From the NCBI GenBank assembly GCA_001795165.1, contig MGNS01000101.1, positions 19,938 to 55,725 of the forward strand: a stretch of DNA of 35,788 nucleotides, given 5' to 3'. Below, piece after piece: positions 29,046 through 35,788 of this stretch. Each line of letters opens with the position of its first letter. Position 1 is the first letter of the stretch. A model generated the notes under the pieces. The model made no database searches. It had not been told where the DNA came from and was given only the letters and a program-made list of their open reading frames with translations. The position numbers and the translations under genes were made by a program. The DNA comes from Chloroflexi bacterium RBG_16_57_11. GTDB taxonomy: Bacteria > Chloroflexota > Anaerolineae > Anaerolineales > UBA4823.

Positions 29046-29606
29046 TTAATACCTGTTCAGGTGTTTTTCCATACGCCAGGCGGGCTCATGCACCTCACGG
29101 CGATTTCCCTGATCGTCAAGATAAGACCAGCGACCAGGCTCAGCAGCTACCACCTGGTAGCCATAACGTTCATAGAATCGTCTTGCATCCGGATTATCAC
29201 GCCCCACGTTCAGCGTAACGAATTGGAAAGCACGCCCGGTCAGATCCCGCTCAACCGTCTGGAGGATGTGCCCGCCGACACCCTGGCTGCGATATTTTGG
29301 CCGGACGCGAAATCCATAAATATAGGCTCGAGAGACGCCATCTGCCAGCTCCTTGCGCGCGCTGTCAAGCTGGACAAAGACTTGACCGATGACGCCTTCG
29401 TTTTCCAGGTCACCCACCCATAATACAGCCTTACCCTGGCACGCGCTATGATAAATATCTCGGTACAGACGTCTGAAGTGCCGGTATTCGCCATCCCATT
29501 CAAGGGCTGGTAGATCATTCTGGATGACCTGTCGCACCAGCAATAGGTATAACCGTCCGGCGCCTGCTATAGATAGCGATGGGGGCACAAAAGTATGGTC
29601 GGTCAC
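29046..29606 (-). CDS. GNAT-family N-acetyltransferase
   Basis: Acetyl-CoA binding motif A (FRVRPKYRSQGVGGHIL) and the C-terminal ARRFYERYGYQVV. The GTG start overlaps the stop of the upstream gene (GTGA). Confidence 0.85.
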   Translation of the reverse strand: MTDHTFVPPSLSIAGAGRLYLLLVRQVIQNDLPALEWDGEYRHFRRLYRDIYHSACQGKAVLWVGDLENEGVIGQVFVQLDSARKELADGVSRAYIYGFRVRPKYRSQGVGGHILQTVERDLTGRAFQFVTLNVGRDNPDARRFYERYGYQVVAAEPGRWSYLDDQGNRREVHEPAWRMEKHLNRY

Positions 29607-32230
29607 AAAGTGCTCGCTTCGGTGTGGACGATTTCTTTGCTTCGCAGGAGTTCATCTAACAGCGCAAATTCTTCTTCCTGCGAATGCACCTGATCATCCA
29701 GCCATGCGCCGCGCAAGGCGTTCAAAATCTGGCGGTAATGTGGGCCGGGTGACACACCACGTTTTTTCAACAAATGCCCGTCGGTGAAGGGCTGCATTTT
29801 TTGCCAGCGGGCGACAAAACTCTGGATTATGTTACGCAACTTTACATCGGAGGTAGCCAGGTAGAGGGCGTAGCATGCCAATGGCGGCACATCTTCCAGA
29901 CGCTCGGTGATCAGGCTTGGCCGTGCTGACGCCAGACTATGCCGGTCACGCCATAGTGCGCAGGCTGCCAGGATGACTCGTGCCAGTTGCACAGGAAGCT
30001 TCAGGCGTCGCGCCACCCCATCCGCTTGTTCAGGCGCCAGCTCGATCAGCCAAAGAGTGTAACCAAGCTCCCTTCGTAGCGTGGTTGGGTCAACGCTAAC
30101 CCCCCAATACACCTCAGGCTGAAGATTATCCAGTAATTCCAGGCGGGCATATAACCAATCGTCCCATGTCAGGCTGGCATGAATTGCAGCCAACAAATCC
30201 AGACTATGTAACCGGCTGATTACCTGCGGGGCGATGCTGGAGGTCAGGATTTGGTTCAGCTCATGGCGGATACGATCTCCGGATAGACGCTCGATTAACG
30301 AGCGCGCCTCAAGAAGTAATTGCATCGTTCGCTGCTCGATCCGAAAGGCGAAGCGTTGCTCGAAACGCGCAGCACGTAGAATTCGCGTTGGGTCATCGAC
30401 AAACGACAACGAATGTAGCACACGCACTAACCCGGCCCGCAGATCCGAAAGCCCACCCCAATAATCATGTAGCTCGCCATAATGGCGCCCATCCAGGCGT
30501 AGGGCGAGGGTATTGATTGTGAAGTCGCGGCGGTGCAGATCTAGCTTGATGCTTCCGCGCTCGACGGTTGGCAACGCAGTCGGATGAGTATAAAATTCGG
30601 TGCGAGCAGAAACTAGATCAACGCTTTGAAGACCTTCCACTTTGATCTTGCCCGGATTTTCCCCATTTCGTTCGGCCAGACGCCATTTCGCCGTCCCGAA
30701 GCGAGAGTGTCCCGTCACCCGGCCGCCATACCGTTCCGCCAGGGCGCGCGCCAAGGCAATCGCGTCGCCTTCGACGACCAGGTCGAAATCCAAACTAGGT
30801 CGCTCGAGCAACAAGTCGCGCACGAAGCCTCCCACGATATATAAGGCAGCACGCTGTTCGTACGCCACCGTTGCAATGATCTTCAACAAGACCAATCGAT
30901 CGGCAGGCAGGGCGGTCTCCAGACGGGCTGTCAGGTTGAGGCGACCCGGGGTCATCGGCTCAGGCGCCAGGTTCTTAAGCAGGTCAGTCCGGGTAACGAT
31001 CCCCACGATTTCCCCACTCTGGGGTTCCACAACAGGAATTTGCCCCCAACCGGTTTCGGTCACCAGGCGCTGGACATGTTCGATCGCATCATCCGGCGCG
31101 ACGGTATAACCGCCCACTTCCATCACACGGGAGACCGGGTAATTTAGCTTATGCGAGATTGTGCGATCCACCGCCCTGCGGGTGATCAACCCAACGACCT
31201 TACCATGGTCGACCACCGGGTAACCCTCATAGCCATAAAGGCGCATGCGTCGATGGGCTTCCTCGACGGGTGTATCGGGACGCAAAACTTGCGGGCCACG
31301 CGACATGATTTGCGCAACAGTAACCGCCGGATGAACGTACTCAGGTAACGTTTCGAGCAATTCGGCCAGAACGCTTTCCAGGTCGCGGCCGCGGATCAGG
31401 CAGGCCGCAGCCCGCTCGTGCCCCCCTCCGCCAAAGCGCGCCGCGACCGCGGCGACATCGATATGATCGCTCGTCGACCGGGCGATAAATTGAACCCCAC
31501 CCCGGGTGGTAACCAGGACAAAAATTGCATCCGGATCCAGCAGGTCGCGCAGCTTGTGGGTGATGGAGGATAGCTCTTCATCCATGTGCTGGGCGTGTCC
31601 CGTTGTGACCACGATCCTGTGCCCCTGAATGTGGTGGGTTTGTGCGGAAGTACGCAGGTGGTCGTATAACGCTTGCTGGGCTTGAGAGAGTGGGTGGTTG
31701 AGGAAATCCGCTGCAATATTCAGGCTTGCCCCTTGCTCAAGGAGAAAAGATGCAGCACGCAAATCGCGCGGTGTCGTGCGTGTGTAGGTCAAAGAACCGG
31801 TGTCTTCATATATCCCTAATAACATCAAGGTGGCATGGATCGGATTGAGCAGTCCGTTGTGCTCCTGCAATTCTTCCACGAGCAATGTCGTGGTGGCGCC
31901 GATATCATGTGTAGTCACCGACCATTCAGCCGGTAAACTCTCGCGCACAGGATGGTGATCGATTACCTTTATCTCGGTCTCGCGGGTCATACCACGCACA
32001 CTTACCATCGATTGTGTGTCTACCAGCAGGACTTTCTCGACCGGTTCGGCGGGCAAGTCGCGGGGATCGACAAACGGCAGCTCGGCGCCGTACAGAGCCA
32101 GAAAAGCGCGCACGTTACGATTTAGACGCCTCGGCAGAACGGGTATAGCCGTCTCGAGCAGCAGGTGTGCACCTAATAGCGAGCCCAGGGCGTCGAAATC
32201 CGCTTGCTCGTGTGTGAGGATGATCTCCAT
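29603..32230 (-). CDS. Multidomain DHH-DHHA1 / CBS pair / tRNA nucleotidyltransferase (CCA-adding or poly(A) polymerase family) protein
   Basis: N-terminal DHH (THEQADFDALGS, VIDHH) and DHHA1 (GGGGHERAAA). Two CBS modules follow. The PolyA_pol head domain has YIVGGFVRDLLL, DFDLVVEGD and RRDFTINTLA, and an RNA-binding tail completes the 875 aa. Confidence 0.85.
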   Translation of the reverse strand: MEIILTHEQADFDALGSLLGAHLLLETAIPVLPRRLNRNVRAFLALYGAELPFVDPRDLPAEPVEKVLLVDTQSMVSVRGMTRETEIKVIDHHPVRESLPAEWSVTTHDIGATTTLLVEELQEHNGLLNPIHATLMLLGIYEDTGSLTYTRTTPRDLRAASFLLEQGASLNIAADFLNHPLSQAQQALYDHLRTSAQTHHIQGHRIVVTTGHAQHMDEELSSITHKLRDLLDPDAIFVLVTTRGGVQFIARSTSDHIDVAAVAARFGGGGHERAAACLIRGRDLESVLAELLETLPEYVHPAVTVAQIMSRGPQVLRPDTPVEEAHRRMRLYGYEGYPVVDHGKVVGLITRRAVDRTISHKLNYPVSRVMEVGGYTVAPDDAIEHVQRLVTETGWGQIPVVEPQSGEIVGIVTRTDLLKNLAPEPMTPGRLNLTARLETALPADRLVLLKIIATVAYEQRAALYIVGGFVRDLLLERPSLDFDLVVEGDAIALARALAERYGGRVTGHSRFGTAKWRLAERNGENPGKIKVEGLQSVDLVSARTEFYTHPTALPTVERGSIKLDLHRRDFTINTLALRLDGRHYGELHDYWGGLSDLRAGLVRVLHSLSFVDDPTRILRAARFEQRFAFRIEQRTMQLLLEARSLIERLSGDRIRHELNQILTSSIAPQVISRLHSLDLLAAIHASLTWDDWLYARLELLDNLQPEVYWGVSVDPTTLRRELGYTLWLIELAPEQADGVARRLKLPVQLARVILAACALWRDRHSLASARPSLITERLEDVPPLACYALYLATSDVKLRNIIQSFVARWQKMQPFTDGHLLKKRGVSPGPHYRQILNALRGAWLDDQVHSQEEEFALLDELLRSKEIVHTEASTL

Positions 32231-33699: not shown

Positions 33700-34215
33700 T
33701 TATCGAATCAGAATTCTTACTTTCTTTCCACCTCTGTTTTGAGCTTGCTTCAGCGTATCGAGTAGAGCCTGAAAGGCGGGTCGTGTATTTTCAGCTACAT
33801 ACCAATGCGTATCTTCACCCATCTGGGGCAAGAGGCGAACAACCTCTTCGACTGCCGGGAGCATTTCAACGATCGGCGTCCACGTCTTTTCTCGATCTTC
33901 CAACCTCTTCTTAAATTCCGCTTCGCTAAGCCTACCAATGATACGGCCCCATTCTGCTATGAACCGGTCATATTCATCGGGCGAGTAGAGCATGTCTTCA
34001 CCGTAATAAATCTCCGTGAGGACCCGAAGATTGACACTGGATTGTTCTTCTAACCGTGAAAACCATCGCAGTTTTGGAGATCCTTCGCTGTGTGTAATTG
34101 CACTCGAATAAGGCTCTAAAAATGAAATTAGAGGCTTCCCTACATTGATGCCATTTTCTCTATCTATTGATAGCGATTCGCCATTGTCTACTTCGAGAAA
34201 AGCGAAAAAACCCAT
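33700..34215 (-). CDS. Putative immunity protein for the adjacent nuclease-like toxin domain (hypothetical, no family recognised)
   Basis: ATG at 34215 has AAGGG 7 nt upstream and lies 40 nt after the stop of the nuclease-like ORF. The protein is 171 aa and cytoplasmic-looking, and the gene is AT-richer than the flanks. The tracked start at 34287 would overlap the upstream ORF. Confidence 0.5.
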   Translation of the reverse strand: MGFFAFLEVDNGESLSIDRENGINVGKPLISFLEPYSSAITHSEGSPKLRWFSRLEEQSSVNLRVLTEIYYGEDMLYSPDEYDRFIAEWGRIIGRLSEAEFKKRLEDREKTWTPIVEMLPAVEEVVRLLPQMGEDTHWYVAENTRPAFQALLDTLKQAQNRGGKKVRILIR

Positions 34216-34255: not shown

Positions 34256-34786
34256 TTAAGGATATATTCTGCCTCCCTCCTTAACAAGATATACCTGGTC
34301 AGTCAAAGTAATCCATGTCGTTTCTAGCAAGAAAGTTCGAGAAGGGTGAAGCCGAGCTTCTCCAATTACTCCGGTCAATGTTGCCCTATCGATCGCTCCA
34401 CCCGACCACTTGACTTCAATATACCTTATCGTACCCATATTTGTTACCATCAAATCATACCCTTCGGACGTGGAATTCACTTCTTCCAGCTTACCCTGGT
34501 TATAATAATATATCGCTCGTTCCGATTCGAATTTTCTACCCATAATAAAATTGTAAATTTTTGCACTTTCAAGCTGGCTTATTAATCCCGGAATACCTGG
34601 AATGTAACTTATATATTCCAAGTCGTTCTTAATCTGCGATATTTCTCTCCCTGGATTATACGCACCTAATTCTGAGAAGTAGAAAATGTGCTTAGGTTCA
34701 GGTGTTTCAGGTGGTTTGGTTGGATTTTGGGTTCCGGAGAAGGCTGTTTTTGTGGGTCTGGTTGAACAGGCCGTGTATATAACCAT
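34256..34786 (-). CDS. PD-(D/E)xK nuclease-like (DUF3883-like) domain ORF, probable toxin tip of the Rhs protein lying in the -1 frame
   Basis: A Pro-rich linker (NPTKPPETPEPK) leads to GRKFESERAIYYY...GYDLMVTNMGTIRYIEVKWSGG...EARL...VYLVKEGG. The D...(E)VK arrangement is typical of restriction-endonuclease-fold domains. It overlaps the Rhs ORF by 121 nt and has no credible RBS at 34786. Confidence 0.5.
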   Translation of the reverse strand: MVIYTACSTRPTKTAFSGTQNPTKPPETPEPKHIFYFSELGAYNPGREISQIKNDLEYISYIPGIPGLISQLESAKIYNFIMGRKFESERAIYYYNQGKLEEVNSTSEGYDLMVTNMGTIRYIEVKWSGGAIDRATLTGVIGEARLHPSRTFLLETTWITLTDQVYLVKEGGRIYP

Positions 34787-35788
34787 TCAATCCAATTACA
34801 GGTTTGGGTTACTTCCTCAGCAACTTCGGGCGCATGTTGTGCCACAAGGACGGCGGTGAGTGAGGCGCCACCAAAGATCGCCAAACAGGCGAGGACGCCT
34901 GCCGCTTCGCCAGCAGGGATCGGACCATCTATAAGCGCCAAGGTGGCGAATAATGTCAAGCAGGCCTCTATCGGACCTTCACCAGTGGGGTCTGTATATC
35001 GAACCGGGTTCGAGTAGGCGTAATTCCACTGGTTTTGTGAAACCGGCCTGAAAATATCCCCCTCCCACACGTCCTTCGTCAGGAAACGGGCTTGGGAAGG
35101 CGAATACCACCTTGCTCTTAGATAAATTAACCCTTGACTTGTATACTCCCCCGTGAACCCATAGCTGCTCACCCCGCTCCCCGCACTGCTCATCACCACC
35201 CCATACGGCTGGTAATCCTTTGCCAGCGTCACCTCGCCGTCTTGATCCGCCAACTGCCTCACACTACCCAGCGCATCCCCCAGGAAATACTCCGCTCCGC
35301 CTGCGTCGTGCTGTGCGATCCGCCCTACGCCATACAGGTAAGTGTCTTGCCCATCCTGCAAGACCTGGGTCAGCCCACCCGCCATGTCTACTGTATAATC
35401 CGTCGTCACACCGTCCACCGTCTGCCTCAGCCTGTCTCCAAGCCCATTATACGTGAAACTGGCCGTGGTTTGCTGGCTGCTGGCTGTGATCAATTGGTTG
35501 GCGGTATTATAAGCGTACGTGTACACCCCATCGCTTTGCAGGTTGCCGTTATCATCCCAGATGTAATTCACCCCATCCACGTTGGTCAGCCGGTTGGCGT
35601 CGTCGTATTGATAAGTGTTCGTCCCCGACGGCATCTCCTGCGTCAAGCGATTGCCGACCGCATCATAAGTGTAGTGGAAATATGGCTCGTTGCTATAATT
35701 TGCTTCCCTCAGCCGGTTGAGCGGGTCGTAGGTGTAAGTGATCGTGATCGTCTCCCCCTCGGTCAACTCCATGGGAGCCGGTTGATCT
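34666..35788 (-). CDS. Rhs/YD-repeat protein, C-terminal part (5' end off-window)
   Basis: Tandem YD repeats (YTYDPLNRL, YTYDAVGNRL, YQYDDANRL, YIWDDNGNL, YTYAYNTANQL, FTYNGLGDRL). The core-closing motif is RWYSPSQARFLTKD...NQWNYAYSNPVRYTDPTGEG. The reading frame remains open to the window end. Confidence 0.9.
   Translation of the reverse strand, partial: DQPAPMELTEGETITITYTYDPLNRLREANYSNEPYFHYTYDAVGNRLTQEMPSGTNTYQYDDANRLTNVDGVNYIWDDNGNLQSDGVYTYAYNTANQLITASSQQTTASFTYNGLGDRLRQTVDGVTTDYTVDMAGGLTQVLQDGQDTYLYGVGRIAQHDAGGAEYFLGDALGSVRQLADQDGEVTLAKDYQPYGVVMSSAGSGVSSYGFTGEYTSQGLIYLRARWYSPSQARFLTKDVWEGDIFRPVSQNQWNYAYSNPVRYTDPTGEGPIEACLTLFATLALIDGPIPAGEAAGVLACLAIFGGASLTAVLVAQHAPEVAEEVTQTCNWIEWLYTRPVQPDPQKQPSPEPKIQPNHLKHLNLSTFSTSQN

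Follow-up and report, generated by a model that had tools for sequence, protein, structure and literature searches.

A chromosomal Rhs toxin gene from Chloroflexota, probably disrupted by a 22-nt deletion in the linker before its predicted nuclease tip

Near the end of the stretch of DNA considered here (35,788 nucleotides (nt) of contig MGNS01000101.1 from Chloroflexi bacterium RBG_16_57_11, assembly GCA_001795165.1; the whole stretch is called the window) lie the 3′ end of a Rhs/YD-repeat gene, a toxin domain displaced into the -1 frame relative to it, and a downstream gene for a protein of 171 amino acids (aa). Coordinates are window positions, and the whole feature is read on the minus strand. 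A sequence-only reading had earlier described a Rhs/YD toxin with a displaced nuclease-like tip; its statements on the sequence are all correct once read on the minus strand, and the displacement has been confirmed by translations, Rhs matches and homologues. An exact-sequence look-up of the 171-aa protein yielded six contigs from other assemblies, evidently of the same population. The contigs most often referred to below are L011 (JGI 3300025325), L012 (Logan SRR3990171), L009 (ENA ERZ27254858) and L005 (JGI 3300025313).

The split gene and its intact alleles

The features of the region, from the Rhs core to the downstream gene, are as follows.

34975-35788, minus strand: 3′ part of the Rhs/YD-repeat core, ending with the Rhs-associated core domain and ...NPVRYTDPTGEG (DPTGEG at 34992-34975); exits through the window end.
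34825-34974, minus strand: hydrophobic Gly/Ala-rich hairpin and acidic APEVAEEV segment (PIEACLTLFATLALIDGPIPAGEAAGVLACLAIFGGASLTAVLVAQHAPE), a predicted pre-toxin module for membrane insertion/translocation.
34718-34824, minus strand: frame A part of the linker (VAEEVTQTCNWIEWLYTRPVQPDPQKQPSPEPKIQP), the same in L011 and L012; the toxin cassette, low in guanine plus cytosine (GC), begins at ~34800.
34717-34718, minus strand: deletion junction, with 22 nt absent relative to L011, L012 and L009 (blastn and MAFFT).
34666-34716, minus strand: out-of-frame tail of the truncated Rhs product (NHLKHLNLSTFSTSQN), followed by the TAA stop at 34668-34666.
34691-34786, minus strand: 5′ part of the mechanically open -1-frame reading frame, from ATG 34786, with the linker misread upstream of 34717.
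34256-34690, minus strand: toxin domain, 144 aa and stop, predicted to be PD-(D/E)xK / restriction-endonuclease-like.
33700-34215, minus strand: candidate cognate immunity gene, 171 aa, intact, with syntenic homologues in four other loci.

Frame A (35787→34666) is a stop-free YD-repeat reading of the form ...NYAYSNPVRYTDPTGEG / PIEACLTLFATLALIDGPIPAGEAAGVLACLAIFGGASLTAVLV / AQHAPEVAEEVTQTCNWIEWLYTRPVQPDPQKQPSPEPKIQPNHLKHLNLSTFSTSQN and a stop; its core sequence finishes ...RARWYSPSQARFLTKDVWEGDIFRPVSQNQWNYAYSNPVRYTDPTGEG, after which PIEACLTLFATLALIDGPIPAGEAAGVLACLAIFGGASLTAVLVAQHAPEVAEEVTQTCNWIEWLYTRPVQPDPQKQPSPEPKIQPNHLKHLNLSTFSTSQN runs to the TAA codon. The open reading frame (ORF) in the -1 frame is closed by a TGA at 34789-34787, opened by ATG 34786 and continues to 34256, reading MVIYTACSTRPTKTAFSGTQNPTKPPETPEPKHIFYFSELG…GRKFESERA…GYDLMV…IEVKW…FLLETT…RIYP and a stop, with the Pro-rich stretch …TQNPTKPPETPEPKH preceding the domain; from 34717 on it is the true linker frame (KPPETPEPK). 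GC content is 55% in the Rhs core and in the whole window, 60% in the hairpin, 46% in the linker, 40% in the toxin domain and 45% in the immunity ORF, and this fall to 40-45% points to a swapped cassette. Homopolymers are found at 34751-34747 (A5), 34728-34725 (A4) and 34686-34683 (T4).

In L011, L012 and L009, 22 extra bases, GCTACCATTTCCTATCCAACCT, are present between window positions 34718 and 34717, with 0-1 mismatches otherwise. The 22-nt gap is the sole difference between L011 and the window over 2741 aligned nt, and L012 shows the same gap and one mismatch. The missing bases encode ..LPFPIQP.. within the intact codons CCC AAA ATC CAA CCG CTA CCA TTT CCT ATC CAA CCT AAA CCA CCT GAA, encoding PKIQPLPFPIQPKPPE, while the junction of the deletion allele reads ...AAAATCCAACC / AAACCACCT...; bases 34666-34716, which form the out-of-frame tail in the window, are read as KPPETPEPKHIFYFSELG in the intact allele. 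In L011, an ORF at 3-1580 encodes an uninterrupted Rhs toxin of 525 aa comprising core, hairpin, linker and toxin (...QPSPEPKIQPLPFPIQPKPPETPEPKHIFYFSELG...). At the deletion site the intact sequence carries two copies of an 8-nt direct repeat, ATCCAACC, 13 nt apart.

Since these near-identical alleles keep the frame intact, nothing in the window requires recoding. A comparison of related Rhs loci, as suggested by the sequence-only reading, thus did find a contiguous frame, in L011, L012 and L009 as well as in distant homologues. Among the explanations that reading had offered, an indel or a decaying toxin tip came closest to the truth, although the lesion does not lie in the A5 run or the 4-nt homopolymers but is a 22-nt deletion at 34717/34718. 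A homopolymer indel, considered as a conceptual 1-nt fusion at the A4 run, was rejected because the 22-nt gap explains the frame break. Position 34717 was likewise rejected as a cassette boundary, the upstream NWIEWLY linker being common to P0004, a protein with the same toxin, and GC dropping from ~34800.

An assembly or sequencing artefact would imply that the organism keeps the 22 nt, that the contig lost them through mis-assembly, a consensus error or a chimeric read, and that the gene is functional. The intact sequence in three other assemblies of the same population is what such an artefact would predict, and the toxin gene is a trouble spot for assembly, with L005, L008, L009, L010, L012 and L013 all ending in or beside it and L005 carrying an unrelated 79-nt end at the same spot. 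A 22-nt loss is, however, atypical of homopolymer or short-read error, the 8-nt direct repeat is far below assembler k-mer length and too short to collapse, and the window and L011 are otherwise identical, which is consistent with a segregating allele. No second indel separates the window from L008 and L009 (overlapping MEGAHIT contigs) over ~11 kb, and the long housekeeping ORFs of the window (IF-2, NusA and an 875-aa nucleotidyltransferase) are intact, so that the assembly does not appear to be indel-prone. Because of the absence of any other indel over these ~11 kb, a real segregating deletion is much likelier than an artefact, which we consider improbable. Searches for further copies of the deletion allele by exact look-up of the 176-aa ORF and of the 373-aa truncated Rhs protein matched nothing, and the 95-aa internal-start version was matched in L005's contig only.

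L005 (= L017/L103) matches the window at 99.8% identity downstream of 34717, while its first 79 nt are unrelated and contain an in-frame TGA; its homology to the intact allele starts no more than 2 nt from the right-hand edge of the window's deletion. Searched whole and as a 27-mer, the 79-nt end had no exact match in the genome contig collection, and it resembled nothing in the window or in the loci it was compared with. This junction could be a hotspot or a contig-end chimera. The toxin gene is also where contigs of different assemblies break off (L010 and L013 at 34394, L008 at 34435), which hints at a branch in the assembly graph, caused by strain variation or a second partial copy.

A programmed -1 ribosomal frameshift or transcriptional slippage, for instance at the A5 run (34751-34747), would instead provide a low, regulated dose of the full Rhs toxin. 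In its favour, a -1 slip of tRNA-Lys on CAA AAA C re-pairs perfectly and joins the frames as ...QPDPQK-TAFSGTQNPTKPPETPEPKHIFYF..., and L101, from another species, also has its frame break in the Pro-rich linker. The two-frame state is nevertheless not conserved, the alleles with 0-1 mismatches and all longer homologues being single-frame, and the overlap contains a single X XXY YYZ heptamer, CCCAAAA at 34731, which does not fall in the register of frame A. Moreover, the intact alleles share the A5 run, and slippage there would do harm. L101 shifts the opposite way (+1), and the breaks of L001 and L002 lie elsewhere, a pattern that resembles random decay. The frameshift proposed earlier is largely refuted by the intact alleles already and has very little probability left.

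The 176-aa ORF from ATG 34786 might also be an independent gene, either kept as a reservoir for recombination or expressed by itself together with the immunity gene. Polymorphic-toxin loci are known to retain such cassettes (PMC3482391), and cassette-like fragments of the family occur elsewhere (L102, L101, L001, and L005 with its unrelated upstream sequence). Against this, at least 265 aa of Rhs core and the hairpin stand directly upstream and share the toxin's frame in the intact allele; codons 1-23 of the ORF are linker read out of frame; on direct reading no Shine-Dalgarno-like sequence or ribosome-binding site precedes ATG 34786; and the domain is C-terminal in every listed family protein, the long members having a Rhs core end upstream. 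With this core in place, the orphan toxin module of the sequence-only reading, taken as a stand-alone gene with its own start, is hardly credible here. The window shows no immunity gene directly upstream, and the 5′ end of the gene is off-window.

Toxin tip, immunity partner and carrier

The -1-frame ORF is more than a chance reading because it has real homologues. The closest ones (P0001-P0003, E = 2e-60 to 2e-41) are each single-frame, running from a DPxG core end through a hydrophobic segment and a Pro-rich linker to the domain found here. In total, the toxin family comprises 32 clusters at 50% identity (profile search at E<=1e-3 against 1.84 billion representatives), in which N-terminal parts that are long enough correspond to a Rhs core end; P0001, P0003-P0005, P0010-P0016, P0018, P0019 and L004 carry the domain as a single-frame Rhs C-terminal tip.

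An alignment of 22-23 family members revealed six invariant positions (G34, G53, E57, L70, D81 and K96) and six near-invariant ones (R54, K55, E59, R60, W97 and E125), while position 94 is mostly E, with Q in several members. The putative catalytic residues are E57 (GRKFE, 34540-34522 region), D81 (GYDLMV, 34462-34445) and E94-x-K96 (IEVKW, 34420-34406), to which the conserved E125 (FLLETT) may be added. According to Zhang et al. 2012 (PMC3482391), the active-site pattern D-[EQ]XK applies to all ten Tox-REase clades, and the invariance of E57, D81 and K96 together with E or Q at position 94 corresponds to this signature, D-[EQ]xK.

The AlphaFold2 model built from the 22-sequence alignment reached a predicted local distance difference test score (pLDDT) of 96 and a predicted template modelling score (pTM) of 0.89, compared to a pLDDT of 43 with an alignment of four sequences. 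Its elements are a helix at 48-66 (E57), strands at 70-73, 82-84 (D81 at the start) and 92-96 (E94-V-K96), a helix at 104-114 and a strand at 122-126 (E125), so that the catalytic residues map to predicted helix and strands. In the model, this αβββαβ topology is that of a PD-(D/E)xK core. The earlier suggestion of a PD-(D/E)xK-like tip is thus borne out by the modelled fold and by the invariant E57, D81 and K96.

The similarity of the toxin to known proteins is only suggestive. Its sole Pfam match, NOV_C/DUF3883 (PF13020; E 0.002), agrees with the DUF3883 guess of the sequence-only reading, scoring 18.5 bits against a gathering threshold of 22.1 and being shared by 2 of 22 members. Profile searches against PDB sequences and searches of the NCBIfam and PHROGs libraries returned nothing for the toxin. 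None of the 22 family members matched a Tox-REase model in an hmmscan against the whole of Pfam-A at E<=1, where the Tox-REase models are presumably Tox-REase-2, -3, -5, -7 and -9. Structure comparison with Foldseek gave weak PDB matches that include Ecl18kI (TMq 0.47-0.49), Hjc, HindIII, VRR-NUC and FAN1, and in BFVD the top matches were annotated "restriction endonuclease" or Mrr (E 2e-3 to 5e-2, probability 0.93-1.0, template modelling (TM) score ~0.5); restriction endonuclease, Mrr, Hjc and VRR-NUC proteins are over-represented among the matches. From the model we conclude that the toxin represents a restriction-endonuclease-fold family that has no Pfam or NCBIfam model, with a predicted nuclease activity.

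In four other loci the toxin is directly followed by a homologue of the 171-aa ORF, whose similarity to the window ORF is listed here.

L001: 56% identity.
L002: 50% identity.
L004 (contig of a metagenome-assembled genome (MAG) labelled Ignavibacteria): 28% identity, E 6e-19.
L099: 25% identity, E 1e-13.

Because this synteny holds across wide divergence, it supports the 171-aa ORF as the candidate cognate immunity protein. The ORF has no Pfam or NCBIfam match.

Between core and toxin, the hairpin consists of two hydrophobic stretches (15-residue hydropathy ~1.9-2.1) around a DGPIPAGE turn, contains several small-xxx-small motifs, and is directly followed by the acidic APEVAEEV segment. It is conserved in P0001, P0004, P0005, P0010, P0011 and L004. 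Evidence for its modularity came from the core search, namely from P0153 and the cut-off fragment P0096; the hairpin alone, used as query in the word-indexed protein search, gave nothing. In P0153, residues ~207-298 are homologous to the hairpin (37% identity over 94 aa, E 3e-15), while its tip differs, with a sub-threshold match to Tox-ART-HYD1. Hairpin, APEVA-acidic segment and Pro linker thus precede both toxin tips. The GC content of the hairpin is host-like, that of the toxin is not, and the hairpin behaves as a portable pre-toxin module on the carrier side. The GxxxG zipper of Tde1 (PMC10240207) and the CdiA-CT entry domains (PMC9424206) suggest, by analogy, that it may act in membrane insertion/translocation.

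The window linker, NWIEWLY…P.P..P, aligns with the P0004 linker NYIEWLYNLPVSPEIKPDP. It is conceivable, though rather doubtful, that the linker is a recurrent breakage point at which the population switches off toxin delivery and keeps immunity. Of the five overlapping contigs extending into the linker, two have the toxin detached from its Rhs carrier, namely the window (22-nt deletion) and L005 (79 unrelated nt), with breakpoints no more than 2 nt apart, and the L101 frameshift lies in the same linker. If true, this site might be a hotspot for tip exchange or inactivation within an undescribed hairpin and Pro-linker pre-toxin module, by which Chloroflexota Rhs proteins would carry different toxins across the target membrane, restriction-endonuclease-like in the window and ART-HYD1-like in P0153.

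The core fragment itself matches PF05593 RHS_repeat (24.1 bits, cutoff 22) and, weakly, TEN_YD-shell. The identical core of L011 matches TIGR03696 Rhs_assc_core at residues 200-277, up to DPTGEG (53.4 bits, cutoff 32.5), as well as TIGR01643, and 767 Rhs homologues of the core were found at E<=1e-20. On direct reading, Asp residues occur at dyad-compatible positions (TKDVWEGD…YTDPTG). The shell inside the window corresponds to the last ~265 aa only, the gene leaving the window at 35788 and L011 adding 25 nt. The core homologues (best 49-66% identity) are mostly short, 200-470 aa, even on contigs of 0.1-2.7 Mb, and a search for the Rhs N-terminus via these homologues did not find it, the best matches being short themselves. 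In Chloroflexota core homologues (P0034, P0037, P0041, P0114 and P0146), the shared homology starts near ITYTYDPLNRL, approximately where the window and L011 end (window ~35700-35788). The short homologues and their common start suggest either that the modules are short or that assemblies break at a repeat boundary.

Host, related loci and the reading as a whole

We propose that the region holds the 3′ part of a chromosomal gene for a Rhs polymorphic toxin, with its immunity gene, from an Anaerolineales-like Chloroflexota bacterium. The IF-2 protein of the window is 64-71% identical to those of Anaerolineales/Chloroflexota MAGs, compared to 48-54% for the listed matches from other phyla, in agreement with the earlier assignment to a probable Chloroflexota genome; no close species representative was present in the genome collection. 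The neighbouring genes are of a chromosomal housekeeping type (NusA, IF-2, DHH/DHHA1 phosphoesterase, TruB), accompanied by genes for the 875-aa DHH-CBS-nucleotidyltransferase, a GNAT acetyltransferase and MazG-like and LOG-like proteins. In the 875-aa ORF (29603-32230, minus strand), DHH and DHHA1 are joined to two CBS domains and to the head of a PolyA_pol/CCA-type nucleotidyltransferase with its RNA-binding domain; the ORF overlaps the downstream GNAT acetyltransferase gene by 4 nt.

In the intact form, seen in near-identical contigs, a single ORF encodes the YD-repeat shell, the core domain (...DPTGEG), the hairpin, the Pro-rich linker and the 144-aa PD-(D/E)xK-type toxin, followed by the 171-aa immunity gene. 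The Rhs core would encapsulate the toxin and then release it, presumably by autoproteolysis, the hairpin would aid its passage across the membrane of the target cell, the nuclease would attack nucleic acid, and the immunity protein would shield sibling cells. In the window, the 22-nt linker deletion beside the 8-nt direct repeat would shift the frame, so that the truncated Rhs protein stops 16 codons later as a toxin-less product and the toxin coding sequence is left stranded in the -1 frame, lacking an evident ribosome-binding site and probably not expressed. With the immunity gene unaffected, the window would represent a recent loss-of-function, toxin-minus/immunity-plus variant. We assign a probability of about 0.8 to the reading that the window carries a null Rhs toxin allele that arose through the 22-nt deletion and that its tip is a restriction-endonuclease-fold toxin with an immunity partner.

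Several observations weigh against this. A clean slippage between the ATCCAACC repeats would remove 21 nt whereas 22 nt were lost, which means that the loss is of imprecise or two-step origin. The deletion is present in the window alone among the eight overlapping contigs found, and was seen in assembled contigs rather than in reads. No Pfam nuclease family matched the toxin above threshold, no PDB structure was matched by Foldseek at E<=1e-3 (best E 0.2), and the best BFVD match, at E 2e-3, falls short of strict significance. The core motif, NPVRYTDPTGE, ends in GE where the canonical PxxxxDPxGL has GL, the relatives carrying E, K, H, N or L at this position. Finally, the Rhs N-terminus lies beyond the window, and the gene may either be a complete Rhs or form a long orphan module.

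Most other loci of the toxin family are disrupted or orphan-like. L001 (9296-10804) has two frameshifts in the core end and is located behind another Rhs tip with a HEAT-repeat immunity gene, L002 (1-330) has an in-frame stop in the core (GFTG, stop, QEDENGLVYLRARYY), L101 (2370-3516) combines its +1 frameshift in the Pro linker with a core of only ~130 aa, and in L102 (1-300) stops occur just upstream. These loci are broken in different ways, a pattern of decay and not of a signal.

Two further sets of loci deserve mention. L004 (22-1523, CALMZQ010000167.1) was the only match in the species-representative genome collection; on this 2.1-kb contig, binned as Ignavibacteria, the Rhs end, hairpin, toxin (38% identity) and immunity gene are intact, and its placement could reflect lateral spread or a mis-binned contig. 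The soil contigs L099 (2091-7964) and L100 (2-10851) contain tandem arrays of Rhs genes of 695-816 aa, each with a small ORF behind it, possibly an immunity gene. One of the arrayed Rhs genes, P0016, bears the toxin family of the window, and the next ORF, of 173 aa, is homologous to the immunity protein of the window. The arrayed Rhs genes of L099 and L100 gave no call for an N-terminal trafficking domain.

For annotation, the two ORFs should be treated as one disrupted Rhs toxin gene (pseudogene or null allele) rather than as a short Rhs protein and a hypothetical protein, and no recoding-site flag is warranted. With respect to toxin biology, the locus offers a small toxin/immunity pair that lacks annotation and whose restriction-endonuclease-like fold is confidently modelled, together with a portable hairpin and Pro-linker module of Chloroflexota Rhs proteins. 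To our knowledge, interbacterial antagonism and Rhs export routes have been little studied experimentally in Chloroflexota. Intact and toxin-minus/immunity-plus alleles would coexist in one natural population, which is the signature expected of dynamics between producers and resistant non-producers and could be traced in existing metagenome series. Current concepts are left unchanged by the locus.

Comparison with known systems

The sequence-only reading had not recognised a Rhs tip of hydrophobic helices and a nuclease as described and had found delivery puzzling in a lineage that generally lacks type VI secretion (T6SS). The novelty was overstated, as restriction-endonuclease-fold toxins on RHS carriers have been described (Tox-REase-1 to -10, PMC3482391); what lacks annotation is this particular toxin family, with the immunity partner and the hairpin pre-toxin module. 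The same source lists type VII secretion (T7SS), PVC, TcdB/TcaC and PrsW-type routes for polymorphic toxins of Chloroflexi (Zhang et al. 2012, PMC3482391), so that a missing T6SS is not in itself anomalous.

The hairpin can be compared with membrane-entry segments of delivered toxins, namely that of Tde1, which needs its GxxxG zipper for entry (PMC10240207), and the cytoplasm-entry domains of CdiA-CT toxins (PMC9424206). In these systems, as in the window, a hydrophobic segment rich in small residues is located N-terminal to the nuclease in the delivered fragment, and the hairpin is modular like those segments, also standing ahead of the ART-HYD1-like tip of P0153. It differs from them in having no sequence homology, its proposed function being derived from position, composition and modularity, and in facing a Chloroflexota target envelope unlike that of the proteobacterial models.

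With NOV_C/DUF3883 (PF13020), the toxin shares a weak match that spans the β2-β3 catalytic region, but a sub-threshold score in 2 of 22 members indicates a shared superfamily at most and not family membership. Mrr-type PD-(D/E)xK proteins are its best structural neighbours in BFVD. Tox-REase-1 to -10 (PMC3482391) resemble the window toxin in being C-terminal toxins on a RHS carrier with D-[EQ]xK, an upstream helix Glu and a dedicated immunity gene, and in their predicted endonucleolytic attack on target nucleic acid. Differences are the lack of a Pfam Tox-REase match at E<=1, a comparison that covers only the clades with Pfam models, an immunity protein that matches no Pfam family and hence no Imm model, and a small family (32 clusters) that is mostly found on Chloroflexota-type Rhs core ends.

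The most general comparison is with the Rhs/YD polymorphic toxins, such as Rhs of E. coli and Dickeya, WapA of B. subtilis, TcC of the Tc toxins and Tse5 of Pseudomonas. The window locus differs from these in its G-E instead of G-L motif, its Chloroflexota (Anaerolineales-like) host, the conserved hairpin and Pro-rich linker between cleavage motif and toxin, an allele frameshifted by the 22-nt deletion, and an N-terminal trafficking domain that is off-window. Like them, it combines, in the intact allele, YD repeats and a TIGR03696 core ending in PxxxxDPxG with a variable, low-GC C-terminal toxin followed by a small immunity gene, and truncated or orphan modules occur in related loci.

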